DNA of 64,000 nucleotides from NCBI GenBank assembly GCA_964514595.1, contig CAZEQZ010000002.1:185663-249662 (forward strand). The letters are read 5' to 3'. Positions 26,879 through 54,458 of this stretch are shown piece by piece. Within the stretch, counting starts at the first letter, position 1. The number at the start of each line of letters is the position of its first letter. Source of the DNA: an uncultured Candidatus Saccharibacteria bacterium. Its GTDB lineage: Bacteria > Patescibacteriota > Dojkabacteria > SC72. The translations under genes were made by a program, and so were the position numbers. The notes beneath the pieces are model-generated. The model had not been told where the DNA came from and did not search any database. It saw only the letters and a list, made by a program, of their open reading frames with translations.

Positions 26879-27802
26879 ATGTACAAGAATAGTTTTGTGC
26901 ACGTACTGGTACTTTTATTCGGCATTTTTCTTCTCAATGGTGTATATTTGCTATATCCTAGGGAAACCAAATCAAAGGAATTACCGGGAAAGATCTATGA
27001 GATATATAGGGTGGATCCCGTAGAGGCAAGGCATGGAAGTCACATTAAGTTGATAACTGTAAACTATGACGGCACTATTACAAAGCATCTGTGTAGATCA
27101 TATTCGCCGGTAACTGCACTTATAGAGTTGGGATATCATATTAGTAATATGAATAAGATTACTGCCACCTCACCAATATCACAGCTTTATACTAACTCTT
27201 TTATTCTTGTTGAGACATATAGGACTACCATAGACGAAGTATTACTTGAGATACCCTTTCAAACCGTGATGAAGGGCAATGTACTATGCAAGAGTTTGTC
27301 CCAAGAGGTCAAAGAGCAAGAGGGAGTGTTGGGATTGATGACTCAGAAGGTAAAGAGGATATATCGTGGGAATACACTTATTGCAGAAGAGATTATTGAA
27401 GAACATATGGAGAGAGAAGCTAGACCTGAAATAATTATAATTCGAGGGCCAGAAGATCTGCCTACCTCTGTTCCTCAGAGAGGATACAACTGTGCATATT
27501 GGAGTGCATATATCGATGGTATTGATGCAACAATCCAAGAGAAAGAGTGGCTAAAGTTTGTAATGAGATGGGAATCAGGATGCAATGCGGAAAGTAACAA
27601 ATCTTTTCACAAAGGTCTATACCAATGGGATCCATGTTTATGGTACAAACAGTATCCTAATGAGAATATTTTTGATGGAGAGGCACAGATTAGGAGGACA
27701 CTGGAAAAGTTAAGAAACGGGGCCAATCCAAGCAGGATGTGGCCTGCAGTACATAAAAAATATTTAAGCAATTGTATCAACTGGGAAAACGGATGTTTGT
27801 AG
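26879..27802 (+). CDS. RpfB-like secreted protein with DUF348-like, G5-like and transglycosylase-like (Rpf) domains
   Basis: N-terminal signal anchor. KLITVNYDGTITKH...ALIELGY (DUF348 pattern). TIDEVLLEIPFQTV...IIIIRGPED (G5 pattern). The C-terminal FVMRWESGCNAESN...YQW resembles the W-x-CESGG-N core of Rpf/transglycosylase-like domains. Confidence 0.5.
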   Translation: MYKNSFVHVLVLLFGIFLLNGVYLLYPRETKSKELPGKIYEIYRVDPVEARHGSHIKLITVNYDGTITKHLCRSYSPVTALIELGYHISNMNKITATSPISQLYTNSFILVETYRTTIDEVLLEIPFQTVMKGNVLCKSLSQEVKEQEGVLGLMTQKVKRIYRGNTLIAEEIIEEHMEREARPEIIIIRGPEDLPTSVPQRGYNCAYWSAYIDGIDATIQEKEWLKFVMRWESGCNAESNKSFHKGLYQWDPCLWYKQYPNENIFDGEAQIRRTLEKLRNGANPSRMWPAVHKKYLSNCINWENGCL

Positions 27803-29859: not shown

Positions 29860-31038
29860 CTATATTTTTACCAAGTATCTTGCACTTACCCACCCTACTA
29901 AATCAGCTCCATACTGTACCTGATACCAACCTTCCTCCTCCCCTAGTAAAATGAAGACAGTACCATCATCTGCACTGTCCAATATTTTACAACTTGACCA
30001 CCTACACTCTCTAATATTCACGAAATTATATGTCGGAGAAGATACTTCCACTAATTGCTTCTCTCCCCGAGAGATTTCAAATTTAACATCAAAAGAGGAT
30101 CCTTCAAATGGCTTTCCTTCAAACTTAAGCAATTCGAACGATTCAGTAGCTTCTCCTAATAAGACTCTTGCTTCCAATTCAAACTCCACCTCCACGGATT
30201 CTCCAGGTAGTATGTTCTTATCCGATACACTCACAGGCTTACTAAAACTTTCCCATTCCTGATTTATTGCAAAGCTACTCTCCTTCCCATCTTTTACAGA
30301 TATATATACTGGATCCCTGTCTGTGAACCAAATAAAGTCATTATTATTCTTAAATTTCACCTTCACCTTTAGCCTTTCTCCTATCTCCAATTGCTCTTCA
30401 TGCACCACCTCTTCTATTCTCGCTCGATATTCTAGGTTCTCCGCTTCATATCCTTCCCAGCCTGAAAGTACTTCCAATACTGAATTAGCAAACTCTCCAG
30501 ATATTTCCTCAGCTGTTATGGTAGATAGTTTTCCTTCTTCCTGGTTAATATTTAGCTTTACTACAGAAAGTTGAGATATTCCCCAATTAGAGGATATCTC
30601 CTCTACCATTTGATTTAAAGAATCGGTAGCCCTATTTGAAAGTATGGAGTTGTTTGACATATATCCTATTGTGACTGCACCTTCCACTTCTCTAAGCTCT
30701 GGATTAGCACCAACACCACCCTCTTTGCCTTGATATATTATCCCATTCTCATCAAGGAGGTATGTATATGGGAGGTCGGAGAAGTGTAGTCTGGTTATAC
30801 TGTAGTAGTAGAGAGTCTTAACCCATTTTGCAGGATCTCTAAGTAGTATGTCGGAATCTGTTGTTACTTGAGTTATGTATATCTTAACTGGATTACTGTA
30901 TATGGTATTAGACTTGTCTGATAGTGAAGTGTCAAATTTCTGACTTTGCGTTGAGTAGTATGAAAATGCCAAAGCAGATGTTGGCTTAAATAGTGCCAAA
31001 GTAAGAAGGAGTGTCAAAAAAAGAATTGTTTTCTTCAT
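29860..31038 (-). CDS. Secreted protein with a degenerate PGRP/amidase_2-like domain and C-terminal bacterial SH3 (SH3b) domain
   Basis: Signal peptide MKKTILFLTLLLTLALFKPTSALA. YTYLLDENGIIYQGKEGGVGAN...TIGYMSNN resembles the amidase_2 core, but the Zn-ligand His residues are replaced. The C-terminal GWYQVQYGADLVGWVSARYL is SH3b-like. Confidence 0.35.
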   Translation of the reverse strand: MKKTILFLTLLLTLALFKPTSALAFSYYSTQSQKFDTSLSDKSNTIYSNPVKIYITQVTTDSDILLRDPAKWVKTLYYYSITRLHFSDLPYTYLLDENGIIYQGKEGGVGANPELREVEGAVTIGYMSNNSILSNRATDSLNQMVEEISSNWGISQLSVVKLNINQEEGKLSTITAEEISGEFANSVLEVLSGWEGYEAENLEYRARIEEVVHEEQLEIGERLKVKVKFKNNNDFIWFTDRDPVYISVKDGKESSFAINQEWESFSKPVSVSDKNILPGESVEVEFELEARVLLGEATESFELLKFEGKPFEGSSFDVKFEISRGEKQLVEVSSPTYNFVNIRECRWSSCKILDSADDGTVFILLGEEEGWYQVQYGADLVGWVSARYLVKI

Positions 31039-31078
31039 TCTAGATATCTTATCAACTATTGTTGTAAATTTGAAGTGA

Positions 31079-32122
31079 TTATTCGGGTGCGGGATCTAGT
31101 AACTCTATCTCTTCTGTTTGCTTCTCTATTAAATATTCTGGATTTATACCACATAGATATACTTGTATTTCAGCAAGGTATGTACTTTTGGTAGAATCCA
31201 GCAGTTTTCCAGTTCCTGTTAATTTATACGCAGGGAAGACATATGAGTAATCATAGTTCATAAATACGTATAAATTATCTACGCCTTCAACTTCCAAAGA
31301 TGAGAGTCTAGCAGAAGAACGTACTAAAATATCTTGTTCCCAAAATCTTTCTTCCACAGAGTTTCTCATAAGGTGCATTGGATATTTTGTAAATTTGAGT
31401 ATCTCATCAACTGATATGGTAGGCATCTTCTGTATGGGAACCAATCCTCTCTCAACATCATGAAGAAGAATTGCAAGTGAATACATTCTATTATCCCCCT
31501 CAATACGAATTTCAAATGCATTTCCCTCTAGATATAAAGATCCATACTTAATACCATCCTTTACAAAGAATCCTTTATATAAGTATGAATTCTCGGACTG
31601 CTTCTTTGTCTCTAAAAGCTCTATCTTCTCAATATTAAAATATGTCTTTAAAAATATATCCAAGTCTTTTGCAGAATTAATTTTCATATCTAAGTTAAGT
31701 CCTGTTTGAGATGTAACATAAAATACTCCTGTGTCTTCATCGTATAAGAATGTGTCTGTTTCAAAGGTCTCGTATAATTGATTCTCGTTTGCAATATAAC
31801 GATCGTCCAAATCGTAGAAGTTCTTTATAAAGTTTCTTGCCACAGAGAGATCTGGCTTGTGTAGCTTATATACCATCTGATACTTATCGAATTCTGAGCT
31901 TTCTCCCTGGAGGTTTAATGTAAAATTATCGCTTAATTCCGCAAATGGACTCTCTATGGAGATTATCTCTCCTGCGGGGATATCTTCTTCAACCTTCTTT
32001 GATTTTAGAAAGATTATTGCAATAACAGATAAACCCAGAACAATTCCTATTATTATATACACACCGTAATTTTTTATTATTTTTTTTATTCTATCCATCT
32101 TATCTAGCAAATCCTTTAACAT
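31079..32122 (-). CDS. Bitopic membrane protein (N-terminal TM anchor, extracytoplasmic domain of about 300 aa), unknown function
   Basis: The single hydrophobic helix VYIIIGIVLGLSVIAIIFL follows a basic N-terminus. No catalytic motif was recognised. Confidence 0.4.
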   Translation of the reverse strand: MLKDLLDKMDRIKKIIKNYGVYIIIGIVLGLSVIAIIFLKSKKVEEDIPAGEIISIESPFAELSDNFTLNLQGESSEFDKYQMVYKLHKPDLSVARNFIKNFYDLDDRYIANENQLYETFETDTFLYDEDTGVFYVTSQTGLNLDMKINSAKDLDIFLKTYFNIEKIELLETKKQSENSYLYKGFFVKDGIKYGSLYLEGNAFEIRIEGDNRMYSLAILLHDVERGLVPIQKMPTISVDEILKFTKYPMHLMRNSVEERFWEQDILVRSSARLSSLEVEGVDNLYVFMNYDYSYVFPAYKLTGTGKLLDSTKSTYLAEIQVYLCGINPEYLIEKQTEEIELLDPAPE

Positions 32123-34649
32123 AACTCTTTATCTCAGAATCTAGTTTAGCTGTGCCCGAACTAGAAATACCTTTAGACCAATCTTCCAAGGTCTGTTGAT
32201 CATATCCTCTAGATAACATTGCATCCCTAATCTGTGTTCCAGATTTCACACCATCTATCGTATGAAATTTATATCCTCCATAATTTCCAGAGATTATCTC
32301 AGCTCCCACTTCCATTCCTAGAGGATTTCCATTTAACCCTCCGCTTCTATACTGTACTAGGTGCGTAACCTCATGGACCATGAGACCTTGGAAGTATGAT
32401 AATCCCGCAGAACCCGCCTTTGAAGAATTACATATTATTCCATTATACCTAGCTACACACCAAGCCCATTCACTATACGTACTAGAGAATGTTCCATCAT
32501 CCACAAAGGTCAAAGAAACTCCACTGAGTCCAAATCTTTCTAGGATACTATCGAAGATTTCTTGATAATCGCCTCCCAATAGTTGCCCTATCATATCCTC
32601 CTTCCCTACGGGAGTCCCCGTGGGATCTATTTCATCTATCATATCAGGAGCACCACATGATACTACTTCAAATGGAGCTACATGAGAATGTACCCCCAAA
32701 AGAGAGCTCCCGAATATGATGACAAATCCCGCAAGAGCAACTATTCCCGCTAGGAAATAAACCAAACCCTCCACACCTATCTTAATAGCGTGAGCACTCA
32801 TCTTCATTAAAGGTTGGGATAGTTTGTATACTAACTCAGAAGCAAGGAAACTAATTAATCCTGCGATAGGAGTTCCTACAACCCCAAGTGCAGACGAAAT
32901 TGCTGTAGTGATACCTTTAACTAAGGTTTGTACCCCTCCTTTCAACATCCAATCCTTTACTAAGGCAACTGCTACCGAATTTTTTATACCCAACAATAGT
33001 ACTTTTCCTACAGCATTTCTAACATGAGAAAGAACATGTTTATTTATTAATCCATCTATTTTATCCCTAATTCTTGATATTGTTCCAAATGTCTTATACA
33101 GGTTAGACAACCTCGCATCTTTTTTTAGAAATTTATCTATCATCTCCATTTGTTGAGTAGATACTCTTCCTGCCAAACTTCGTACATATGCATCATCTCC
33201 CTTCTCTAATTCTGCAAGAAATCTAGTCCAATCGAAATTCGATATCTCTCCTAAAATTTGTTTCTTAAACTTTTCCTGCGATCTATACGCTAGATATCCA
33301 AAGCCCTCTCCATCTATCAATGTCTTAACCCAAGCAGCCGGAGAAAGGTAGTAGACAGAATTCATTTTATCGAAGTATGCCTGCTGGAATCGATTAGTTG
33401 CTTCTTTTGCTGCATGGATCTTCAAACTATGCCCCCTTCTTGTAAATGCTTGCTCTTTAGATGGTTGTAACCAATTAATTTGATTATATTTATCTGCAAA
33501 GAATTTCCCGTTAAGAATATTCCCCATAAGGTTTCCGTCTATAAACAAATCTTTTGCAGAATAATACATTCCTTCCCATTGACCTAATTGCCCTGCAAAA
33601 TCTTCGAATCTAGACATTCTGATATCACCCTGTATGCTTCTCATTGAATTTTTTAGTTCCCTTATCTTCACATGCTTGTCTGGGTCGTTACTTCTTTGTA
33701 GTTGAGATATTGCATTAGAGATACTATTTAAATCTCCCTCTAATTTGTTTCTAAATGCTCTTGCAGCTGTTTGATCATATACATTGGCTACAACATCACT
33801 GGCTCTTTGATATTTCTCTGCCTTATCCATATCCCCCGCCATTCTTGCATCTACTGATTTTTTAGAAAGGTTAGCCTTTTCTAAGACGGTATATAGTTCA
33901 CGATTAACAAGTAATTCGTCTCTTATTTTTTCAAAGTTATTATTACTCAAGTGGGTGGAGTAGCTTTGTCTCCATTTTCTATATTGGTTCCACTTCATAT
34001 CCGCCTGTGCATCCCCTAGAGTACCACCGAACATATTTCTAAACTCCTGTCTTGTGAATTCCCTACTATTAGGATCTAGGTATCTTTGTGCTAATTTCTC
34101 ATTTCTGTATGTCACACCAAAGGTGTCGTATTGAGTTCTCATACCTATTGGTTTTTTTGTAAACTCATCTACTTTACCCCCTCTTCCTGCTGCAACCATT
34201 GCTTCTTGAGTATCCTTATCCAATCCATATTTCTTTGCCCACATGTATCCAACTATACCTCTCATTTCCTCCCCTGCCCAAGCTATTCGTTGCTGTTTTC
34301 TAATACCCTCTATCTTCTTGTATTGAGCATCTATGTATGTGCTCGGATTTTCCATCAACTTTTTCAGCTCTCCAAGATTGAACTTGATATTATCTGGAAC
34401 TCTCTTTCCTACACTTACGGTACCCACATCCACATCGAAGGCGTTATTGAAGGCCTCCATTGTCGTCTTATTTACATATAGGAGGGGATTTTCTAGTACA
34501 GCAGTTAAAGCATCAACCATTTCAGAGGAACCATCTACACCAGTGACCTTAACTGGCTTAACTTTATTGGGAGGCTTTTGGGACTCTTCAAATATGAAAT
34601 CAAAAACCGATCCCAGGGCATCTTCGTATTGCTTCTTTTGCTGTGGCAT
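32100..34649 (-). CDS. Large (849 aa) protein: soluble N-terminal region of about 640 aa, cluster of TM helices, C-terminal HExxH zincin-like domain
   Basis: No signal peptide. Hydrophobic helices around residues 640-730 (GLISFLASELVY, LVYFLAGIVALAGFVIIFGSSLL). Motif GLMVHEVTHLVQY with a downstream Glu (GMEVGAE) near the C-terminus. Confidence 0.45.
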   Translation of the reverse strand: MPQQKKQYEDALGSVFDFIFEESQKPPNKVKPVKVTGVDGSSEMVDALTAVLENPLLYVNKTTMEAFNNAFDVDVGTVSVGKRVPDNIKFNLGELKKLMENPSTYIDAQYKKIEGIRKQQRIAWAGEEMRGIVGYMWAKKYGLDKDTQEAMVAAGRGGKVDEFTKKPIGMRTQYDTFGVTYRNEKLAQRYLDPNSREFTRQEFRNMFGGTLGDAQADMKWNQYRKWRQSYSTHLSNNNFEKIRDELLVNRELYTVLEKANLSKKSVDARMAGDMDKAEKYQRASDVVANVYDQTAARAFRNKLEGDLNSISNAISQLQRSNDPDKHVKIRELKNSMRSIQGDIRMSRFEDFAGQLGQWEGMYYSAKDLFIDGNLMGNILNGKFFADKYNQINWLQPSKEQAFTRRGHSLKIHAAKEATNRFQQAYFDKMNSVYYLSPAAWVKTLIDGEGFGYLAYRSQEKFKKQILGEISNFDWTRFLAELEKGDDAYVRSLAGRVSTQQMEMIDKFLKKDARLSNLYKTFGTISRIRDKIDGLINKHVLSHVRNAVGKVLLLGIKNSVAVALVKDWMLKGGVQTLVKGITTAISSALGVVGTPIAGLISFLASELVYKLSQPLMKMSAHAIKIGVEGLVYFLAGIVALAGFVIIFGSSLLGVHSHVAPFEVVSCGAPDMIDEIDPTGTPVGKEDMIGQLLGGDYQEIFDSILERFGLSGVSLTFVDDGTFSSTYSEWAWCVARYNGIICNSSKAGSAGLSYFQGLMVHEVTHLVQYRSGGLNGNPLGMEVGAEIISGNYGGYKFHTIDGVKSGTQIRDAMLSRGYDQQTLEDWSKGISSSGTAKLDSEIKSYVKGFAR

Positions 34650-34662
34650 AGATATTTAAAAA

Positions 34663-35970
34663 CTATTTAAACATACTTCCAACAAATGGAACTTTTCCAA
34701 ATCCTTCCTTAATTGCCGCAGCTGCATCTGCACCACTCTTGGATGCTGTGGGAGGAATTATTGCTTTTGCCAAGGCAGGAGCTTGAACTGCAGCATAGAT
34801 AGCTATTAATTTTGCTAAAGCGATTAGCATAGGGCCCATATCTCCTATGCTTGCCTGATCACCTGTAAGAGATTTAGGAAAATCTATTGATATGTTTTTT
34901 GTTTCTAGATAGAAGGGTATGTTAACTATGGCAAATGCTATTGGAAAGACTAGGGCATTACGAAATATTGATTTAAATATATTAACTATACTAGCATCAT
35001 TTCCTGGTAAGGAGCCTAACATTATTGATAATGGAGCAACTATCACATTCAACAGTATAGCTAAGTATGATTTAACTAATGTAATCCAAAGCTTTATTGC
35101 TCCAACTAAGGCCGCTCCAGCAATAATTATTCCCAATATAATGGGGATTAATCCGGCTACCGCATTCAGTGTTGCTAACCCCAAGACTATTCCAACTAGA
35201 GATATTGAGGAACCTGTCTGAGCTCCTCCACTCCAAGTTACTGCCCAAATATCATGTATTGGGACCCCACTTCCTAGAAGACTTTTTATTACTGTCATAA
35301 GGACACCGCATATGTCAATAATTACTCCCGCTATGGCAAAACTAAAGGTTACCAAGACTAATGATATTACAACCCTTGGAAGTGTATTACCTAATGTTAC
35401 CAAGGTCTGACCTCCCAGTTTACTTCTAAACATTATCATAAAGCCTACTGCAATCATCACTACAACAAAGGCAAGGTACGCTATATTTCTTGTAAAGGAC
35501 CATATTTCATCAACACCGGTACTCCTAATATCATCATAACCTGAAGCATATATAGATTGTGTCTCTTTATATCCTGGAACCCATTCCCTTGAGAGATGTG
35601 CTATGACATCAATCCTTGGTTGAGAATCAAACATGGCTGTAACTTGACGTTCAGCGGTACCTAATAAACCGTATTTCATCTGATCAGGATAATTTCCTGT
35701 TTGTATCCTAGGATTCGCTTCCGTACACTCTGGACAAAGTATAGCAAGTATGAATTCTCCTATTCCCGTAATGATTTTCCCTACAAACTGGGCTATACTT
35801 TCCCCTACAAAGCCAGTCAGATCTCCAACAAAGGAAACTATATGTTCCCATGTGGTCTTTGTGTCTATGGGTTCACCTAGCGTATCTTGGGCCAGTATAG
35901 GGGAACTTAAGCTTGTGATGAATACAAATAGTGTGGTCATCAATACAACAATTATCCTAAGAGCTTTCAT
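34663..35970 (-). CDS. Polytopic membrane protein, TrbL/VirB6-like topology (signal peptide, extracytoplasmic loop with a Cys pair, about 6 TM helices, Ala-rich C-terminus)
   Basis: Hydropathy pattern. CPECTEANP loop. TM-rich Gly/Ala/Ile core. The family assignment is by architecture only. Confidence 0.35.
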   Translation of the reverse strand: MKALRIIVVLMTTLFVFITSLSSPILAQDTLGEPIDTKTTWEHIVSFVGDLTGFVGESIAQFVGKIITGIGEFILAILCPECTEANPRIQTGNYPDQMKYGLLGTAERQVTAMFDSQPRIDVIAHLSREWVPGYKETQSIYASGYDDIRSTGVDEIWSFTRNIAYLAFVVVMIAVGFMIMFRSKLGGQTLVTLGNTLPRVVISLVLVTFSFAIAGVIIDICGVLMTVIKSLLGSGVPIHDIWAVTWSGGAQTGSSISLVGIVLGLATLNAVAGLIPIILGIIIAGAALVGAIKLWITLVKSYLAILLNVIVAPLSIMLGSLPGNDASIVNIFKSIFRNALVFPIAFAIVNIPFYLETKNISIDFPKSLTGDQASIGDMGPMLIALAKLIAIYAAVQAPALAKAIIPPTASKSGADAAAAIKEGFGKVPFVGSMFK

Positions 35971-35997
35971 ATTTTTATATAATTAAATTTAAAGATA

Positions 35998-37440
35998 TTA
36001 TATTAACAAATAATGCTTTGCTGATTCTCTGTTTAATTCCAAAACTTCATTCCAATACTCTATAAACGTTGGAATAAAGTCTTCTTGACCAGGAGCCTTG
36101 TCTTTAGCCTGCATTCTATAATTCATTAGGAAAGGTGTCGCATCCCATAGACACCACACATCAAATTCTCCTGTTGCTCCATTATCATAAGTTGCTATAC
36201 CACTACATTGTGTAGCTACATAGAACATTAAACTATCTTCAATATTATTAGAGACCTCCTTCTTAGAGGCTGTTTGAAAAGGAGCCTGTGTAGCAAGGTA
36301 TGTGTATGTCATAAAAGCATTAGAACATATACCATTATTACAATCATATGTGTTCCCAAATATTGGTGTCATTTCTACCATGAGACCCCTAGATCTAGGA
36401 CATTTCTCACGCTTAATAGATTTATTCCCCTCTTCATCTATAATTTCAACACCATCTTCATCACAGTAGTCCCATTGATTGGAGCTAAACGTTTGTCTAA
36501 AAAGACCCTTGAAGCGTGTATATATTGATCTTTGGTCACACGCCTTCCATACCCCATCATTAGTACCTAAAAAAGTAACACTAACACTACTCAAACACTC
36601 CGCTTCTCGTTGATAATCATAATTATCTCCTCCTGGGATTTGCTGTCTCGTAAAGCCACCCCCGCTATCTCCCCTCAGATTACTAGCCCCAACGTTGAAA
36701 TCGCTTGTACTAACCTCACGAGGACAGTTACACGCGGGATCATTTTCCGCATTATCTATGTTATATCTTCCATCTCTCTTTTCCTGCTCCTGATTAGCAG
36801 AGACAGTTAATTGACCAGTAACTTCAAATGCCTGTCTTTCAGTAGCTGGCAACTCTTTCACGAAGGCATCGGACTGATATGGAGCCATAGTCTTTTCCAC
36901 TATCGCACCTTCCCACTCTCCACTAGAAGAATACGACGGATCATCCACTCTAATCTGTCTGTTACTATCCTTCATAGTATATGGACCTAACCAGAGAGCG
37001 AGAGGATATGTGACCATAGTAAGTTCAAAATCAACTATATTTTCCACCTCAACTTCATCTCCGGAGAATCCCACAGGATCACCTCCATAATTAGGAACTT
37101 CATAGTGAATCTGTGCACCACCAGATGAGCAAAGCCTTCTCTCCAAATCTACAATATTAGCAGGTTGTCTACACAAAGATGATATCTCTCCCTTAACCTC
37201 TCCTCCCTCTGCATACTCGGTAGCGTTACTATCTTCCAAAAATACATACTCTACATTCTCTGTTACTATATTTTCTTCCCTACTAGGAGAGCATGTTGAG
37301 CACTGTTGCGCATCTTTATTCAACCACCTCCCATCGAACGAAACCTTTATACTTTTAGCTAGGTATACTGAGAAAAGAGCAAAGAATAGCATGCCTAAAA
37401 GAAACAAGATCCCATTTTTCCTACTATTTTTTATACTCAT
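35998..37440 (-). CDS. Secreted cysteine-rich protein (480 aa, about 17 Cys)
   Basis: N-terminal signal anchor (ILFLLGMLFFALFSVYLA). Cys clusters (CSTCSP, PACNCPRE, DYCDEDG, YDCNNGICSN). No known catalytic motif. Confidence 0.4.
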   Translation of the reverse strand: MSIKNSRKNGILFLLGMLFFALFSVYLAKSIKVSFDGRWLNKDAQQCSTCSPSREENIVTENVEYVFLEDSNATEYAEGGEVKGEISSLCRQPANIVDLERRLCSSGGAQIHYEVPNYGGDPVGFSGDEVEVENIVDFELTMVTYPLALWLGPYTMKDSNRQIRVDDPSYSSSGEWEGAIVEKTMAPYQSDAFVKELPATERQAFEVTGQLTVSANQEQEKRDGRYNIDNAENDPACNCPREVSTSDFNVGASNLRGDSGGGFTRQQIPGGDNYDYQREAECLSSVSVTFLGTNDGVWKACDQRSIYTRFKGLFRQTFSSNQWDYCDEDGVEIIDEEGNKSIKREKCPRSRGLMVEMTPIFGNTYDCNNGICSNAFMTYTYLATQAPFQTASKKEVSNNIEDSLMFYVATQCSGIATYDNGATGEFDVWCLWDATPFLMNYRMQAKDKAPGQEDFIPTFIEYWNEVLELNRESAKHYLLI

Positions 37441-39293
37441 AATGCTCTAATCATTTTACCCCCTTTCCTTTGTCTTGTCACACTTCCTTTATATGTGACT
37501 ACCCCTATAGAGATAAGGGCAAAGGAAAGCAATATTAAGTATACTACATTATCCAATATTCCTGTTTTTGGAGTTTCTATCCCCGAATCTACTTCATACT
37601 CTGAATCGTCTGGAGTAACTACTAAATCAGGATTTACACCCGTACTATGTCCTAAGATTCCGTAGTTCTGAAGTAGCTCTACCCTTGTATACCCCACTCC
37701 TGAGCTAGAATTCCCCTCTACGGATATTTCAACATCCCTATCACTTATGCCTTGCATTTTCTCTGTATGTGTACTTGCTGAGAATGTTGTTACCAAATTT
37801 ACATTAAGCGAATCTTCAGACGTATACTCAAAGTATGAGGTACCGTCCTGAACTCTACTTTCGGCTATTGATAGTATCCATTTACCATTCTCATCAACTA
37901 GGGTAGAGAGTTTTAGACTTTCTCCCTTACTTCCTGCACCATCTTCATCCTTAATATGTACCGTAACTACTACTTCCTTATGCTCTGGCATACCATCTAT
38001 CACTCCAGTCACAGATTCGAATGGTGGAGGAGATGTAAGTGTAGAGAAAGTTTTCACTACATATTTATTCCCCCCATTATCGTATTTATTATCCCCTGAT
38101 TCTATCTCAAAGAAATACTCAGTATCTGGTTGTAGTCTACTTAGAACTACAGAGTGGATATAGTAGTTACTTTTTGTTGTAAGGCCATCTCTTTCATCAG
38201 TAGCTTGACTAGACAAAGAATCACGGGAAGTTCCATAGTTAATATGACCTTTCTCTTTATTCTCTGATATCCAAAGAACCGTAAAGCCTGTGTCTGTTAG
38301 GTTTGTTGTTTGCACACTTGCAGCACCAGACACACCCGAGACTGCTGATCCATCTCCCGTGACCATATCTATCCATTGCAAATTATGTACTATCCTAAAT
38401 ACTCTTCCTGTGTTTCCAGTTGGAGTATCATCTGTCTCCTGGGCTGGAGGGGTTGTCGGAGTTGTTGGCGTTGTCGGTTGTGTGGGCTCTTCTGGTTCTG
38501 CTACAAATGCCTCCAACATAGATACAGGAGGAAAGTCGTTGTATAGAGAGGAATTATCGCCAATTGTTAAGGCATACACATCCTTCAATTTACCACTGCT
38601 ATCAAATAGTTCGGAGTATGTACCTTCCTGTACTGCACCTTTATTAGGACCGGAGATAGCAACAAGAACTATGTTAGTAGAATTGGTAACTACAATAGGG
38701 GTCTTATTGGCAATACTTCTAAATGCAGAGAGGTCTATAACCCAATTACCTCCTGTGGGAATGGTGGTTGATACAGGATACGCAGATTTATCTTTAAGAA
38801 GGGCATATATTATTACATCGTCTCCCACTACCCCCTTAATTCCTCCATGTATGGGATTGGGAGTTGCAGACGTCTCTGTTATTGGAGCAGTTTTGAATGC
38901 AAAGTTTTTGTTTCCTTCACTACGATACTTCTCTCTATCCGATACTATTACAAATTCGTATTGAGTATTTGGATCTAAGTCTTCAATATCGATATGGTGC
39001 GTGTATCTTCTTCTATTACCTCTTTTTGTATCAACAATGGGACTTTTTTCTATTCCATTTTGGATAGGTATTACAGAACCAAATGACTGTACATCTGTGA
39101 CCCAGCTTACGGTAACGGCACTTGTAGTTAATTTACTAATAACAACATTACGAGGTTGTGCCTCTGCTGACGCTCTCGTTATGAGTTGGTATGCTTGGTA
39201 TGATGCAAAAACTACCAAAGGTATTCCTATTAACAGTATCCCTATTATCGTGAGATCTCTTCTTCTTTTACTAGGTACAGTAGCTATTCTCAT
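37437..39293 (-). CDS. Cell-surface protein: N-terminal TM, two purple-acid-phosphatase-N-type fibronectin-III-like domains, Pro/Thr linker, C-terminal TM anchor with basic tail
   Basis: VVISKLTTSAVTVSWVTD...YTHHIDIEDLDPNTQYEFVI and FTVLWISENKEKGHINYG...YYIHSVVLSRLQPDTEYFFEI. PTQPTTPTTPTTPP linker. The C-terminal ETPKTG + LILLSFALISIGVV + RQRKGGK. Confidence 0.5.
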   Translation of the reverse strand: MRIATVPSKRRRDLTIIGILLIGIPLVVFASYQAYQLITRASAEAQPRNVVISKLTTSAVTVSWVTDVQSFGSVIPIQNGIEKSPIVDTKRGNRRRYTHHIDIEDLDPNTQYEFVIVSDREKYRSEGNKNFAFKTAPITETSATPNPIHGGIKGVVGDDVIIYALLKDKSAYPVSTTIPTGGNWVIDLSAFRSIANKTPIVVTNSTNIVLVAISGPNKGAVQEGTYSELFDSSGKLKDVYALTIGDNSSLYNDFPPVSMLEAFVAEPEEPTQPTTPTTPTTPPAQETDDTPTGNTGRVFRIVHNLQWIDMVTGDGSAVSGVSGAASVQTTNLTDTGFTVLWISENKEKGHINYGTSRDSLSSQATDERDGLTTKSNYYIHSVVLSRLQPDTEYFFEIESGDNKYDNGGNKYVVKTFSTLTSPPPFESVTGVIDGMPEHKEVVVTVHIKDEDGAGSKGESLKLSTLVDENGKWILSIAESRVQDGTSYFEYTSEDSLNVNLVTTFSASTHTEKMQGISDRDVEISVEGNSSSGVGYTRVELLQNYGILGHSTGVNPDLVVTPDDSEYEVDSGIETPKTGILDNVVYLILLSFALISIGVVTYKGSVTRQRKGGKMIRAL

Positions 39294-39341
39294 TAATGAT
39301 TATGATACCTGTAATAAGGCTAGAAAACAATCTATGTATTA

Positions 39342-42300
39342 TTATCTTACACTAGGATGCCAGTTACCTACACCCTTTATAACCCTTACGAAGTATGATC
39401 TTTGTTTTTCTATAGGAAAATCAAAGCCGTAGGTTTGAGCACTACCCTCTACAGAAGTATCTCTTTGAAAACCTTCATACGACCCCTTACTCTCTTGCCA
39501 CCTAGTAACATTATCTGCATCAAAATCTATACCTTTGTAGTTAGCTATGTCTTCTAATAATGATTTAGCTGTGTATGATTTAGCCTTAGAACCGTATACC
39601 CCTACTAAGTTCCATCCAGGAATTAGTAGTATGGGTGCAGAATCTCCTATTTGTTCATATTTTATTTCTTTACCAAAGAGAGAAACTCTTATATCCTTTT
39701 TAACATTTAACAGATATCCCTCACCTGGGAGTATCCTAAAGTCATTCTGATCATAGTTACCTGCATTAGCTCCAACTGAGATCCATTTACCATTTTCTAA
39801 TTTTGATATAGAGGAAACAGAATTACCAATGACACTGTTTAGATATTTAATAAGACCGGAAGCTTTATTTAATTCAGATCTTTCATTTATAAAAGGAAAG
39901 GATATCAAATTGAAACCTTTTTTAAGGTCATACCTGTATTCTCTTTGTATTGTAATAACCTCTAAGGTTTCAAAATCTTTACTTAGATTAGTATCTCCTG
40001 AGTCTATTATTCCGTTACCATTAGAGTCCAAGTATACATCAGCACCTTTTGAGTCTGTATCATTTATTATAGCTAAGTAATAATCACCATTTACATTGAA
40101 TATATGCACCCCTCTTCCTACCCTCTCCAAGATGTCTTCTTTTGTATTTATAATATATGACTCGAACTCCTCTGTCTCTTCAGCAAAAACTTTCCCTAAG
40201 ATACTAAATCCTTTGCTCTCAAAGCTTAAGCTTTTATCTTCATTTGTATTCTGAATACTACACCTAGTGTATCTCCCTGAGCCCGAGCCACATACTCCAA
40301 AGTCTTCTATATACGTTTTTATAGCAAAATTTCTATCTTGTGTTGCTTTCATACTCTCGTATTTTTCCTGAGTAATAGGGACCCACTCTTCCTCTGCTGT
40401 AAATTCGTTAATTAATATAGTGGCTACTACAACTCCCCCTACCACAAGAGCTGCTGTTCCCAATCCGACACCCGTTGTTGCCGCTGCTGCTTCTGTAGTT
40501 ATATATATTGTTGGCGCCTGACTAACCGCAAGAGCTGAAGTAGAAGTAGATGCGGCTGTGGTAGCTAGCGATGAGCCTGTGTATACTGTAAGTGCTTTGG
40601 TCCCTACGTAGGGGACAATAGGATACAAACTAGCAGAGGCATATGGCATATCATCAAGTATCTTCTGTATTTCAGGATCTGGTTCTTTTGCATTATTTTC
40701 TTTAAACTTTGCCCATAGTCGATCTACTGCACCTATACTATCACAGTGATAATACATACCTGTATCCGCATTATGATATAGAGTACCCGCTTGCCCATCA
40801 CATTCCTTTCCTGACAAATTGTCAGCCGGAGGGACTTGTAGAAAAGGCATTGCCTGAGCACCAGCTTCTGCATCTATACCAACCCCTTCATCTGGACTCA
40901 TAGAAATACCGTACTCATGTCCTTCGATCCCCCAACGTTTCGTTTCTCCATTACATTTAAGACTACCATCTATGGTAACATAGCCATCACTAAACCAACA
41001 TTTATATGTATAACTATAACAATCCCGTGTAGTACCTGTATTAAATCCTCCACATAGACCTCTACTGTCGGCTTCATCCGCCATTCTATCCCTTAATTCA
41101 TCTGTATATTTATCTTCCGTATCTGGATGTACTTTCACTCTTCCATCTGGGGTACATAAGCACATTTGTGCTGGACCGATGGGTTTTTGTTCATTTGCAC
41201 ACGCACAATCACACTCTTGACTATTACTATATCCACACATCCCCATGTGTCCACAAATATCACCTACACATGTACCTTGTACTCTATTAAAATTAATCTC
41301 ACAATCAGAAGTAAAAACGTCAAAGGTCCCAAGACCAGAAACATTAATTCTTTTACACATTGGAATATCTACCCCATCTATTTTTTTTGTACATGCGTCG
41401 TTAAAACAACTTCCCAGTTCACAACTAACTGAACCTTGCCCCCCACTTGTATCTCTTCCATTAGAACCTGCAAATATCTGTTCATTTATATCCGCATCTA
41501 TAGGGTCCGTACAAGAACCATCAAGCGGATCTAAACAATACCCACCATCATTACTAGGTTCAAATTTAGGAGTACAATCGGGATCCCCCCACCCCAATCT
41601 AGAATCACTACAAACTTCACATTGATTATTATCTCCTCCATCTGTATCCTCCGCACTCACTCCGAAAACAAAAGCTCTTAAATCTATACCATTGAAATCC
41701 TTATTTGTATTAACTACCTCCTTATTCTCTTTCCCAAAAGAATTACCCTCATATATGACACTCTCATCTAACTCATCATCCATTCTCATATCTATAGCCT
41801 TTGCAGGTGCCTTATTATATACATCTATCTCAGTACTCCATCTCCCTTTCCACGTATTCTCTATCGTTAACTTAAGTTTTATATATGTACCTTCATAATC
41901 CTTTACACTATCCCAAAAAGTTGTACCATCCTCCATATATGCATTCATAATATCTAAATACCATCCACCTTCTTCATTTGTAATAGATGAAATCATCTCA
42001 GATTCCACTTGATATATCTCTTCATATACCGTCGCATACACTATTGCATCAGAAGGCCTCTCATAGCCAACCACATCATCTACGTAGTACCTAACAACTC
42101 CATATGCTGGTTCAGGAGTCCTAATTTCCTCAATCTCTTTTCCTGTCTTAAAAGAGTATTCCCCAGTATTCTCAGAAGAAACCCTCTTAAACACATTCCC
42201 ATCCCCAATCATGAAATAGTACTCTTTATTAGATTCCAAACCTCGTATGGTAGCATGATGGACATAATATTCACCCATATCTGTAACTACTATATCGGTA

Positions 42301-42731
42301 AATATCTCCCCTGCATCCACACTACTACTTCCTTCCTCTGATACTTTCTCAGAATTCCTCTGTGCCTCATCTAATTCAGCCTTAGTATAGTCTCTATCAT
42401 CATATGCTAACAAAGAGTTTCCAATCTTGGGCATAAAGGGAAGAATAAAATTTCTCTCCTGATACATAACCATCCCAGGAGTTGGCTCTTCTGTAATCCA
42501 AGATACTGTTGCTGATCCTGCAGTCACATTACTAACCATTACCCTATATGGCACAAAAGAGGATGCCTTATACCATCCCCATATACCTATTCCTATAACG
42601 GCTACTAAACAAACAACTAATACAGGAATAATTACTTTAAGGAAATTAAACTTACCCTTTTCTTTAACCTCAACTTGCTGAACCTGCGGTTCTACGACTG
42701 AAGGAGGAGTCTCTTGATTACCTTCGTACAT
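39342..42731 (-). CDS. Giant (1129 aa) surface protein: N-terminal TM, PAP-N-type Fn3-like domain, long Cys-rich extracellular module, internal hydrophobic segment, C-terminal domain
   Basis: MVSNVTAGSATVSWITEEPTPGMVMYQE...YYVHHATIRGLESNKEYYFMIGDG is paralogous to the neighbouring 618-aa protein. More than 40 Cys lie between residues about 365-660. A TM-like GVGLGTAALVVGGVVVATIL segment follows. Confidence 0.5.
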   Translation of the reverse strand: MYEGNQETPPSVVEPQVQQVEVKEKGKFNFLKVIIPVLVVCLVAVIGIGIWGWYKASSFVPYRVMVSNVTAGSATVSWITEEPTPGMVMYQERNFILPFMPKIGNSLLAYDDRDYTKAELDEAQRNSEKVSEEGSSSVDAGEIFTDIVVTDMGEYYVHHATIRGLESNKEYYFMIGDGNVFKRVSSENTGEYSFKTGKEIEEIRTPEPAYGVVRYYVDDVVGYERPSDAIVYATVYEEIYQVESEMISSITNEEGGWYLDIMNAYMEDGTTFWDSVKDYEGTYIKLKLTIENTWKGRWSTEIDVYNKAPAKAIDMRMDDELDESVIYEGNSFGKENKEVVNTNKDFNGIDLRAFVFGVSAEDTDGGDNNQCEVCSDSRLGWGDPDCTPKFEPSNDGGYCLDPLDGSCTDPIDADINEQIFAGSNGRDTSGGQGSVSCELGSCFNDACTKKIDGVDIPMCKRINVSGLGTFDVFTSDCEINFNRVQGTCVGDICGHMGMCGYSNSQECDCACANEQKPIGPAQMCLCTPDGRVKVHPDTEDKYTDELRDRMADEADSRGLCGGFNTGTTRDCYSYTYKCWFSDGYVTIDGSLKCNGETKRWGIEGHEYGISMSPDEGVGIDAEAGAQAMPFLQVPPADNLSGKECDGQAGTLYHNADTGMYYHCDSIGAVDRLWAKFKENNAKEPDPEIQKILDDMPYASASLYPIVPYVGTKALTVYTGSSLATTAASTSTSALAVSQAPTIYITTEAAAATTGVGLGTAALVVGGVVVATILINEFTAEEEWVPITQEKYESMKATQDRNFAIKTYIEDFGVCGSGSGRYTRCSIQNTNEDKSLSFESKGFSILGKVFAEETEEFESYIINTKEDILERVGRGVHIFNVNGDYYLAIINDTDSKGADVYLDSNGNGIIDSGDTNLSKDFETLEVITIQREYRYDLKKGFNLISFPFINERSELNKASGLIKYLNSVIGNSVSSISKLENGKWISVGANAGNYDQNDFRILPGEGYLLNVKKDIRVSLFGKEIKYEQIGDSAPILLIPGWNLVGVYGSKAKSYTAKSLLEDIANYKGIDFDADNVTRWQESKGSYEGFQRDTSVEGSAQTYGFDFPIEKQRSYFVRVIKGVGNWHPSVR

Positions 42732-42802
42732 AGAAAATTTCTATCAAATTATTACTTAAAATTAACACAACAGACCTAAGAATACAAGCATTCTCTATAG
42801 CT

Positions 42803-43126
42803 CTACTTCTTCAAACCTGAGAAAAAATCTCCTACTATTGATATTGTACTACCTATCTTCTTAATGGGTATTAGTATAGCTTCATTTATCTTCCCAACAG
42901 TACCTTTTACTGTGGACACCATATCCTGCACATCATCTACTATGAGAGTAGCCTGTTCCATTATCTTGTTAGCATTCTTTATTATCTCTCTGGAATCTTT
43001 AACAGCATCCTTCGATTCCCTTATGAGCATAGCCAAATAGTATAGAACCAAGGAGAACATAATCGTAATGGCCGATACAATAATCATCCAAAATATCGCC
43101 GGTATTTCTGACATAGTAATAATCAT
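42803..43126 (-). CDS. Small membrane protein, DUF948-like (N-terminal TM plus coiled coil)
   Basis: A 107-aa protein. An N-terminal hydrophobic helix is followed by a charged helical segment (KDAVKDSREIIKNANKIMEQATLIVDDVQDMVSTVKG). Confidence 0.4.
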   Translation of the reverse strand: MIITMSEIPAIFWMIIVSAITIMFSLVLYYLAMLIRESKDAVKDSREIIKNANKIMEQATLIVDDVQDMVSTVKGTVGKINEAILIPIKKIGSTISIVGDFFSGLKK

Positions 43127-43196
43127 AAAAGTTTAATTTATACCTATATATAATAGAAAAATGATTAATATGTCAAATATAATGATATAATCACTA

Positions 43197-43934
43197 ATGC
43201 AAAAATTCTTTATTAGACACAAATTAAAGGTTGGAGATATAACTAACCTCTCTGATTCAGACAGTGAGATAGTTATTAAGGGAGGAAAACTCAACATAGA
43301 GGATATTGTGGAGATAGAGACATATGAAAAAATATTCTATGCACAAATAACTGACATTACGAAATCAAGTGTTGAGGTAGAGATTATAGAAGAGATCGGA
43401 GAAAGAAATAGTGAATATGTTCCTAGTATCACAATAATACAGTCACTGAGTCATGACAGTAAGTTTAACTATTTTATAGAAAAGAGTGTGGAAATTGGTA
43501 TAGAAAAAATAATACCTATACAATCTAAATACTCTCTAAAGACAAAAGCTAAAGCTATTAAAGATGTTGGATTTTGGAACAAGTTAGTAAAAGATGCAGT
43601 AGAACAATCCAGGAATATATTCCCCACTATAATTGAAAGACCCATTAGAATAGATGAACTCAAAGAATATACATTTCCAACGGATAGTATAAAGATATGT
43701 CTTAGTACAGAAACTGTGGACTCTAAATACCTTAATCAGATAGTTAAAAACATAGATCTGTCTAAACCAATATATATAGCCATAGGTCCTGAGAAAGGAT
43801 GGAGTTCATCTGACTTAAATGTATTTAAGGAATTAGACTTTAAATTTGTTAAATTAAGGGGAAATATCCTCAGAACAGAGACAACTGGTTTAGTTATTGG
43901 TAGTATACTTAAATATTTGAAAGGAGAGATATAG
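43197..43934 (+). CDS. rsmE: 16S rRNA (uracil1498-N3)-methyltransferase, RsmE family (SPOUT)
   Basis: C-terminal IYIAIGPEKGWSSSDL...LRGNILRTETTGLVIGSIL matches the RsmE knot region; N-terminal PUA-like domain. Confidence 0.8.
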   Translation: MQKFFIRHKLKVGDITNLSDSDSEIVIKGGKLNIEDIVEIETYEKIFYAQITDITKSSVEVEIIEEIGERNSEYVPSITIIQSLSHDSKFNYFIEKSVEIGIEKIIPIQSKYSLKTKAKAIKDVGFWNKLVKDAVEQSRNIFPTIIERPIRIDELKEYTFPTDSIKICLSTETVDSKYLNQIVKNIDLSKPIYIAIGPEKGWSSSDLNVFKELDFKFVKLRGNILRTETTGLVIGSILKYLKGEI

Positions 43935-53584: not shown

Positions 53585-53663
53585 AACAGAATGATTTTAG
53601 CAAAGTATGTATATATTTGCTACCCATTTTATCTACAATCTTAAATCTGCTAATATCTATACT

Positions 53664-54458
53664 ATGGAAAATAGTTGGAACGTACAAACACATAGTGAAA
53701 ACAAAGTACGAAGAATACGCATATGGATATCTGCTGTATTGGCACTGTCTGGTTTAGTTATAGTTTCCAGCCAGGTTATACCTTTGACAAAATCATACGT
53801 GGAGGGAGTGGTGGAACAAAGGAGAGTTGACATAAAGGTGGATCCTGTACCAGAGTCGTATAAAAAATATATAGAAGAAGAGTTCGCATATTATGATCCT
53901 GGGAAGAGCTACTTTGCAAATCTTTCCCAGCAGTTGGGGAATTTAGACATTACAGGACAATACTCATATAACCCAGATACCAAGACACAAAGAGAAGTTC
54001 TAATAGACAGAGAGTACAAGACGGATATGTCCGTCACTATTGAGAGTGTAGGGATTAAAAATATTAAAATATCATCGAACGTGGAGAGTTCTAATGAATC
54101 TGTATACAATCAATATCTTAAAAATGGTGTTGCCCACTTTAAAGGTACACCTCTTCCGGGAGATGGAGGAAATTCGTTCATATATGGGCATAGCGCTGTT
54201 GAATCATTTTTTAGTAGACATAGGGATTTGCCTGAAACAATATTTTCTAGACTGAATGATATAGATATTGGACAAAAGGTTGTTGTAAATAGAGAGGATA
54301 AAGTATTAGAATATATCGTAAGGAACAAGAAGATTGTAGATCCTGATGATTTTACAATCCTACAACCTTTACACAACAAAGAAACAGTAACATTAATGAC
54401 TTGTTGGCCTTTGGGTATAGGAACTAAGAGATTAATAGTAGTTGCTGAAAGGAGATAA
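53664..54458 (+). CDS. Sortase (cysteine transpeptidase); the ORF is open from 53607, but the second Met at 53664 is the more plausible start
   Basis: N-terminal TM anchor. Catalytic His in NSFIYGHSAV. TLxTC motif VTLMTCWP. Conserved Arg nine residues later (TKRLIVVAE). Confidence 0.7.
   Translation: MENSWNVQTHSENKVRRIRIWISAVLALSGLVIVSSQVIPLTKSYVEGVVEQRRVDIKVDPVPESYKKYIEEEFAYYDPGKSYFANLSQQLGNLDITGQYSYNPDTKTQREVLIDREYKTDMSVTIESVGIKNIKISSNVESSNESVYNQYLKNGVAHFKGTPLPGDGGNSFIYGHSAVESFFSRHRDLPETIFSRLNDIDIGQKVVVNREDKVLEYIVRNKKIVDPDDFTILQPLHNKETVTLMTCWPLGIGTKRLIVVAERR

Follow-up and report, generated by a model that had tools for sequence, protein, structure and literature searches.

Contig CAZEQZ010000002.1 of assembly GCA_964514595.1 (uncultured Candidatus Saccharibacteria bacterium; GTDB lineage Patescibacteriota, Dojkabacteria, SC72) was analysed over a stretch of 64,000 nucleotides, forward-strand positions 185,663 to 249,662, referred to here as the window and numbered from its first letter. 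Between positions 29860 and 43126 the window carries a block of eight consecutive minus-strand genes, named g0 to g7 in order of transcription, each of which encodes a membrane, secreted or surface protein. The product of g4 resembles VirB6 of type IV secretion systems (T4SSs), and the block probably encodes part of such a system.

Neighbouring genes in the block are spaced by −23 to +71 bp, and no terminator-like site was found in any intergenic gap from g0 to g7. A promoter-like site at 43176..43203 on the minus strand, in the divergent spacer between rsmE and g0, is a candidate start of the transcription unit (9 of 12 matches in a consensus scan); this candidacy is limited by the finding that promoter-like sites are rarer in this region than in shuffled sequence. 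An earlier note on this DNA, made from the sequence alone, had listed seven of the open reading frames (ORFs), and all seven are present, on the minus strand and nearly free of gaps, bracketed by uvrD on one side and by rsmE and rsmB on the other. It had placed a further small, DUF948-like gene (g0) in the housekeeping flank, where gene order in relatives makes it a member of the conserved cluster instead.

The VirB6-like protein g4

The g4 gene (34663..35970, minus strand) encodes a polytopic membrane protein of 435 residues with at least six hydrophobic segments by hydropathy. Its N-terminus is signal-peptide-like, and its outer N-terminal region has a CxxC motif that about half of the orthologues conserve. 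AlphaFold modelled the protein as entirely helical, with long helices (predicted local distance difference test score, pLDDT, 61; predicted template modelling score, pTM, 0.50). The sequence matched nothing in Pfam, NCBIfam or the PDB, and a profile of the distant g4 family likewise found no PDB match. A profile of 20 orthologues was then run against a library of 1.84 billion proteins; the matches fell into 3,753 clusters at 50% identity, and 942 of these scored below 1e-30.

Loci of distant family members share a recurrent layout, in which an array of 2 to 9 genes for small two-helix proteins and then a gene for a large protein precede the g4 homologue. After it come a large gene in the opposite orientation, a PrgI gene, a conserved gene for a protein of 211–334 residues and the gene for a VirB4-type ATPase. 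The small two-helix protein is a T4SS pilin (PF18895, E 5.5e-9, for the one array member tested), the PrgI-family (VirB3-like) gene belongs to PF12666, and the ATPase matches P-loop_TraG (E 1e-28) and AAA_10. A profile built from the block's own g4 orthologues alone matched the g4 homologues of these pilin- and VirB4-bearing loci at E 1e-37 to 1e-54. In these loci the family sits between a pilin array and PrgI/VirB4. The layout is that of the patescibacterial T4SS of the literature, pilin array included.

Structure comparison pointed to the same protein. In a Foldseek search of 350,542 PDB chains with the g4 model, ranks 1 to 4 were all TrwI/VirB6 chains of the R388 T4SS, with probabilities of 0.93–1.0. 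Across two structure searches, TrwI/VirB6 and DotA of the Legionella Dot/Icm system were the best matches, with 210–226 residues aligned at 9–14% identity; both differ from the present case in that they come from diderm systems. The same Foldseek search returned nothing but noise for the g5 model, which argues that the g4 match is not a generic helical artefact. Gene context and two structure searches thus converge on g4 being VirB6-like, although Pfam does not place it in TrbL, and the TrbL/VirB6-like character that had been proposed for the 435-residue protein is borne out by both the loci of its distant relatives and the top four structural matches. This large, unannotated family is accordingly VirB6-like, and it may also have been missed by curated T4SS profiles.

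The other proteins of the block

The g5 gene (32100..34649, minus strand) encodes 849 residues. The first ~545 residues lack hydrophobic segments, and AlphaFold models them as helices (pLDDT 70–90 for residues ~100–560). Three predicted transmembrane (TM) segments fall within residues 546–646, and a domain with an HExxH motif ends the protein; the TM helices and C-terminal HExxH domain that had been proposed for it were thus both found, as three hydrophobic segments and the motif HEVTHLVQ. This arrangement would leave the N-terminus in the cytoplasm and the C-terminus outside the membrane. The outer domain differs among orthologues. Pfam detects Peptidase_M23 in 16 of 35, and the M23 motifs SH...AID and GxHLHLE are visible in more, making up most of the orthologues; the endopeptidase ShyA was matched at E 1e-3. 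In the window's g5 an HExxHxxQ...E domain replaces M23: the protein has no match to PF01551 (Peptidase_M23), and its C-terminus aligns with the HExxH domain of three relatives (P0293–P0295), which carry the same version with the motif invariant. Searches of Pfam and the PDB with this domain gave nothing significant, the eCIS_core/DUF4157 family (PF13699) being matched at E 0.28 over 17 residues. Foldseek with the whole g5 model found no meaningful match, and the C-terminal domain was poorly predicted. The outer domain of g5 is modular, and in most orthologues it is a predicted wall peptidase. For comparison, one pilin-bearing T4SS locus encodes a 947-residue protein that combines a Gly-zipper with M23.

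A few long g5 orthologues of ~1,170 residues (L010:5142-8654 and L027:11346-14837, in our numbering of related loci) carry an outer insert of ~250 residues. A hidden Markov model (HMM) search showed this insert to share homology with the C-terminal portion of the large protein that T4SS loci encode between the pilin array and the VirB6-like gene (E 1e-31 to 1e-36).

Upstream of g4 lie three genes for surface or secreted proteins. g1 (39342..42731, minus strand) encodes a Cys-rich surface protein of 1129 residues with two hydrophobic segments: an N-terminal TM segment, a Cys-rich middle, a second TM segment at 756–774 and then a C-terminal region of 355 residues. In g2 (37437..39293, minus strand; 618 residues), two Fn3 domains and a Pro/Thr linker precede a sorting signal at the C-terminus. 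A TM segment and a domain of the Fn3/purple-acid-phosphatase-N type stand at the start of both proteins. The Pfam matches are Pur_ac_phosph_N (E 6e-9) for g1, and Pur_ac_phosph_N (E 2e-17) and fn3 (E 3e-8) for g2. The two had been regarded as paralogues; this holds for their N-terminal ~230 residues (22–25% identity, E 9e-8), while the rest of the two proteins is unrelated. No PDB sequence match was found for g1.

The C-terminus of g2 consists of TPKTG, a 19-residue hydrophobic segment and RQRKGGK, and so differs from LPXTG at the first position of the motif. The pattern [TI]P[KNQE]TG followed by a TM segment and a basic tail occurs in 16 of 32 aligned g2 orthologues; the other 16 end without an anchor. 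Outside the block, a sortase gene at 53607..54458 on the plus strand (Pfam Sortase, E 8e-24) encodes a candidate enzyme for anchoring g2. On this sequence evidence g2 is a candidate sortase-anchored wall adhesin, in keeping with the earlier description of a surface protein with Fn3 domains, a Pro/Thr linker and a C-terminal anchor. At ~53,600, between dnaJ (minus strand) and the sortase gene (plus strand), the genes diverge, gene orientation and GC skew change sign, and the cumulative skew has its minimum. A replication origin at this switch is unsupported, since the spacer measures just 22 bp and the window shows no enrichment of DnaA boxes.

g3 (35998..37440, minus strand), directly upstream of g4, encodes a Cys-rich protein of 480 residues with an N-terminal hydrophobic segment, either secreted or anchored at its N-terminus. 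Cysteine counts of 27 for g1 and 14 for g3 agree with the Cys-rich character that both had been given, and across 32 g3 orthologues seven Cys are invariant and one is nearly so. For g3 there was no match in Pfam, NCBIfam or the PDB, and no relative was detected outside the block.

g0 (42803..43126, minus strand), the first gene in the run, encodes 107 residues with one N-terminal TM segment (hydrophobic residues 10–28) and a helical tail; its matches to DUF948 and to holins are sub-threshold only. It was also considered as a VirB2 pilin, and the pilin HMM gave no match. g6 (31079..32122, minus strand; 347 residues) is a bitopic membrane protein, as had been proposed, with its single TM segment at residues 21–39. 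It evolves fast: positional orthologues are 12–32% identical, a homologue search with g6 found 2 sequence relatives, and its profile gave chance-level matches only in the PDB.

The last gene, g7 (29860..31038, minus strand), encodes a secreted protein of 392 residues. Its signal peptide is followed by a degenerate PGRP/amidase_2-like domain, and a middle domain separates this from SH3b at the C-terminus. The expected SH3b part is recognized by Pfam (SH3_3, E 2e-9). The PGRP-like part is recognized by the orthologue profile only, which matched many PGRP/amidase chains (best E 5e-4, weak but consistent) along with an autolysin SH3b domain (E 2e-5); the single sequence had no Pfam match to PGRP/amidase_2. 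Over residues 36–190 in 37 orthologues there is no invariant or nearly invariant His or Cys, so that the zinc ligands of active amidase_2 enzymes are apparently absent, and the counterpart of the His-containing PGRP strand appears to read IYITQVTT. With no conserved His or Cys at the places of the zinc ligands, g7 is probably a peptidoglycan binder rather than a hydrolase. Profile–profile comparison of g2, g3, g5, g6 and g7 with the large proteins encoded beside VirB6-like genes in pilin-bearing loci showed no relation, which for g3 covers the proteins at the equivalent position; the outer insert of the long g5 orthologues, picked up by HMM search, is the sole exception. In direct scans of all eight block proteins, Pfam and NCBIfam recognized Fn3/PAP_N and SH3b domains only.

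Gene order in relatives and genes beyond the window

Relatives of g4 were collected by scanning one genome per species, which gave 327 stretches, and by scanning metagenomes, which gave at least 562 more. ORFs were called in 164 related loci and scored with a profile of each block gene. Named relatives of the block proteins are almost all assigned to 'Candidatus Dojkabacteria' (WS6), within the Patescibacteria or candidate phyla radiation (CPR). The complete order, one or two Fn3 genes followed by g3-g4-g5-g6-g7, was found in 62 of the 164 loci; the remaining loci with the cluster hold truncated versions of it, without any rearrangement. The synteny check that the earlier note had proposed thus gave a fixed block order in every relative examined, and the arrangement is not due to chance. 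g4, on which the assignment of the whole block hinges, is the best conserved member, its identity dropping to about 32% across cluster-bearing relatives. A g0 homologue precedes the 618-residue Fn3 gene in those relatives whose sequence extends that far. g1 is the variable member: relatives may lack it or have one or two copies, which normally precede g0, and in the window it follows g0.

The block is flanked upstream by the divergent genes rsmE and rsmB, and downstream by uvrD and genes for a G5-domain protein, a TPR protein and EF-G. In all relatives examined it occupies the same chromosomal place between rsmE and uvrD, and in 2-kb steps GC content is 0.36–0.39 over the block and 0.31–0.39 elsewhere, with no marked island (window GC ~36%, in a reduced genome). 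An origin of the block in a mobile element was rejected on these grounds and because neither an integrase nor a relaxase turned up among the scanned window proteins. The only mobile-element gene seen in the neighbourhood encodes a Y1 (IS200-type) transposase (L166:7928-8359), ~5 kb past the left end of the window.

Conserved order alone is no proof of a functional unit, given that the housekeeping flanks are equally collinear. Added support for a unit comes from the tight packing of g0–g7 and from the recurrence of the g4–g5 pair at a second genomic place. In loci L085–L093, and in L081 from a Dojkabacteria metagenome-assembled genome, we found a trio consisting of a gene for a 235-residue protein, a g4 paralogue of ~600 residues (g4') and a gene for a protein of ~650 residues (g5'; for example L092:9295-13744). 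The first ~150 residues of the ~650-residue protein are homologous to the N-terminus of g5 (hhalign probability 98%, E 4e-14). In L092, the sole such locus with Pfam annotation, dnaA, yidC and jag stand a few genes upstream of the trio, which adjoins Baseplate_J-like and FtsA/PilM-like genes; no VirB4-type ATPase was found among the genes scanned there. That g4 and g5 travel together to a second place argues that they work jointly.

We also searched for the genes that accompany the g4 family elsewhere. HMMs for the pilin, PrgI, the spacer gene between PrgI and VirB4, and VirB4 (the last built from two VirB4-type proteins) matched nothing in the window, nor in those of the first 84 loci that bear the cluster, and Pfam scans of window proteins showed no VirB4-type ATPase either. 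The absence of a VirB4-type ATPase that the earlier note had reported therefore stands for the 64-kb window. It does not extend to the contig in the same way. Through holA, the last gene of the window, we reached 10 kb more of the same contig (L167), identical over the overlap. There, 8.3 kb past the right end of the window, lies a PrgI/VirB3 gene for a protein of 275 residues, which scored 27.9 bits against a cut-off of 27 and matched the HMM from the T4SS loci at E 1.3e-27. A TraC-like gene overlaps its last codons; this gene matches PF26593 and, at E 7e-51, the PrgI–VirB4 spacer gene of the T4SS loci. The two genes occupy L167:19704-20941, or ~72,296-73,533 in continued window numbering, ~29 kb from the block, and are read as the beginning of the T4SS ATPase module. 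The available part of Table S1 of a CPR survey, moreover, scores its Dojkabacteria assemblies as VirB4-positive (Quinonero-Coronel et al. 2025, PMC12102498).

Several smaller observations concern the surroundings. Just past the window, L167:11036-13642 encodes a 595-residue protein (weak DUF11 match), a 135-residue protein with Fn3 alone, matched by the g2 profile, and a 140-residue protein with a He_PIG Ig domain; these further small surface proteins stand near the T4SS genes. On the other side of the block, 26879-27802 (plus strand) encodes a 307-residue protein whose orthologues have a G5 domain and whose Cys/Trp-rich C-terminus has the look of a wall-acting domain; in relatives this gene is always on the opposite strand and adjoins uvrD. 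Two further large ORFs, 55833-57860 (plus strand, 675 residues) and 1811-3451 (minus strand, 546 residues), have no Pfam match at E ≤ 1e-5.

Relation to type IV secretion systems

We favour, with a probability of roughly 0.6, a reading in which the patescibacterial (MPF-FATA-like) T4SS has here a lineage-specific variant whose genes are split: the block would encode its envelope and surface half, apart from the ATPase half. In common with patescibacterial T4SSs the block is of monoderm type and chromosomal, and no integrase, relaxase or coupling protein was found among the window proteins scanned with Pfam; published work describes relaxases as absent from most CPR T4SS loci. One genome holds a VirB6-type protein, a putative peptidoglycan hydrolase, and PrgI/VirB3 and TraC/TrsD-like genes, and the g4 family fills the place between the pilin array and PrgI–VirB4 in other loci. 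The differences are that the genes here lie in two loci ~29 kb apart, with no VirB2-like pilin array found near either; that the block's g4 escapes Pfam TrbL; and that the block adds surface proteins with Fn3 domains, a secreted Cys-rich protein and one of PGRP-like/SH3b type, which the available parts of two published accounts (PMC12102498, PMC12857230) do not mention for CPR T4SS loci.

The Gram-positive conjugation plasmid pCF10 offers a second comparison. Its prg/pcf genes encode the adhesins PrgA, PrgB and PrgC, the VirB6-like PrgH, the hydrolase PrgK, which also has a LytM/M23-type domain, and the VirB8-like PrgL. The block shares with this MPF-FATA system wall-anchored adhesins (here candidates) upstream of a VirB6-like protein, a large membrane-anchored multidomain peptidoglycan hydrolase (here putative) and bitopic proteins. 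It differs in not being on a mobile element, in ATPase genes that are not adjacent, in the lack of a relaxase or coupling protein among the scanned window proteins, in adhesins that are Fn3-based and unrelated in sequence, and in the 545-residue, putatively cytoplasmic N-terminal domain of g5. The likeness is one of layout, and no block protein could be placed in a pCF10 family by sequence. The earlier note had likened the block to the part of Gram-positive T4SS loci that encodes adhesins and channel components; in this sense the comparison is upheld, as are the C-terminal anchor of g2, the VirB6-like g4, the PGRP/SH3b protein and the HExxH domain.

In the proposed machine, g4 would be the VirB6-type polytopic subunit, serving as membrane channel or assembly platform. 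g5 would be a large membrane scaffold whose exchangeable outer peptidase, M23 in most relatives and an HExxH zincin-like domain here, opens the peptidoglycan in the manner of VirB1- or PrgK-type hydrolases. g7 would be a non-cutting peptidoglycan binder that perhaps fixes the apparatus within the cell's own wall or against that of the host. The sortase-anchored Fn3 protein g2 and the variable, membrane-anchored g1 would be surface adhesins, in the place of the LPXTG adhesins of Gram-positive conjugation loci, with g0, g3 and g6 as presumed lineage-specific structural partners. In the Agrobacterium operon virB5 precedes virB6, and g3 holds the corresponding gene position. Energy would come from an ATPase expected to follow the PrgI and TraC-like genes, so that the two loci would cooperate, and by analogy with Saccharibacteria the machine may serve attachment to a host bacterium and the exchange of macromolecules with it.

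Several findings weigh against this reading. Pfam TrbL (PF04610) gave nothing for g4 at E ≤ 0.1, and among 36 distant g4 relatives a single one had a weak TrbL match (E 0.005). The g4 model is of modest confidence, and its Foldseek matches have E-values of 0.02–0.4 and TM-scores of 0.30–0.47. A search for VirB2-type pilins came up empty in the window and its 10-kb extensions as well as in those loci of relatives that carry the cluster, and the right-hand extension ends inside the TraC-like gene, short of VirB4 itself. The paralogous g4'–g5' pair near dnaA, one case of which is in a Dojkabacteria metagenome-assembled genome, means that either copy could serve the ATPase. The housekeeping neighbours (rsmE, rsmB, uvrD and the genes for the G5 and TPR proteins) are as syntenic as the block. 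Lastly, g0, g1, g3 and g6 have no recognizable relative outside these loci, and no sequence method ties any of them to a T4SS component.

The earlier note had seen in the block either a stripped-down apparatus or something not yet described. With PrgI and TraC-like genes 8.3 kb past the window end and Dojkabacteria scored as VirB4-positive, both are less likely than part of a known T4SS encoded in two places. The note had also allowed that a T4SS elsewhere in the genome would make the block known rather than novel, and the PrgI and TraC-like genes go part of the way towards this. A related possibility, which we consider unlikely, is an envelope organelle derived from a T4SS and independent of an ATPase, for example a static structure for attachment or contact at the host interface, or a passive conduit there, working without VirB4. 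It would account for the finding that in ~120 loci neither the block nor the DNA up to 10 kb away holds a gene for an ATPase, VirB3 or a pilin, for the g4'–g5' pair near dnaA with no VirB4-type ATPase among the genes examined, and for a block rich in adhesin-like and wall-binding proteins. It is hard to square with the PrgI and TraC-like genes just ~29 kb off on the same contig and with a g4 family that is accompanied by pilins, PrgI and VirB4 in every other context with enough flanking DNA; we also know of no ATPase-free function of VirB6 proteins.

Two explanations do without a secretion system altogether. The block could encode a machine for growth or division of the cell's own wall, in which a complex of g4, g5 and g6 positions the M23-type or zincin peptidase together with g7, the Fn3 proteins being ordinary wall proteins. 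M23 and PGRP/SH3b domains are indeed typical of autolysin systems, the block is fixed in a chromosomal housekeeping neighbourhood, and a G5-domain wall protein is encoded nearby, with YceG and LytR-Cps2A-Psr genes further off. The g4 fold, however, matches VirB6 and DotA, the g4 family is embedded in T4SS loci, the PGRP-like domain of g7 is without catalytic residues, and there was no match to FtsX, FtsW/RodA, MreCD or other divisome or elongasome families, so that we hold a wall machine to be quite improbable. Least credible of all is that there is no functional module, the block being a set of unrelated envelope genes kept adjacent by the frozen gene order of reduced genomes. The equal collinearity of the flanking housekeeping genes and the coming, going and shifting of g1 are as this explanation predicts. 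Its difficulty is with eight genes on one strand, tightly packed or overlapping and without intergenic terminators, whose products are all envelope proteins, and with a g4–g5 pair that recurs elsewhere as paralogues with homologous N-termini in g5 and the ~650-residue protein.

The split T4SS can be carried further, to a version that we regard as rather doubtful. Here the highly diverged g4 family would be the 'missing' VirB6 of most Patescibacteria, and Dojkabacteria would have rebuilt the outer part of the T4SS around g4, a sortase-anchored Fn3 protein, a Cys-rich protein at the VirB5 position and a non-catalytic PGRP/SH3b protein replacing the VirB2 pilin array. The outcome would be a conduit to the host that depends on contact and has no pilus, possibly independent of VirB4, because the second g4–g5 copy near dnaA has no ATPase beside it.

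Since patescibacterial T4SSs have already been described, the block does not represent a novel type of system. Its novelty lies in the split arrangement, the lack of a pilin array found nearby, the complement of Fn3, Cys-rich and PGRP-like proteins, the swappable peptidase domain and the large VirB6-like family. Patescibacteria make up a large share of bacterial diversity, and the wall- and host-touching parts of monoderm T4SSs are, to our knowledge, little known; the block supplies conserved candidates for those parts in the exchangeable peptidase domain, the peptidoglycan binder, the Fn3 adhesins and the Cys-rich protein. In the available part of the CPR survey, VirB6 homologues are scarce or absent in Microgenomatia and Gracilibacteria, and extreme divergence is suspected as the cause (Quinonero-Coronel et al. 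2025, PMC12102498). Because the g4 family links an unannotated polytopic protein to pilin/PrgI/VirB4 loci, its profiles could fill this VirB6 gap in major CPR classes. In one saccharibacterium, Ca. Southlakia epibionticum ML1, the one system tested by genetics, the T4SS is reported to be essential for epibiotic growth (PMC12102498; PMC12857230).

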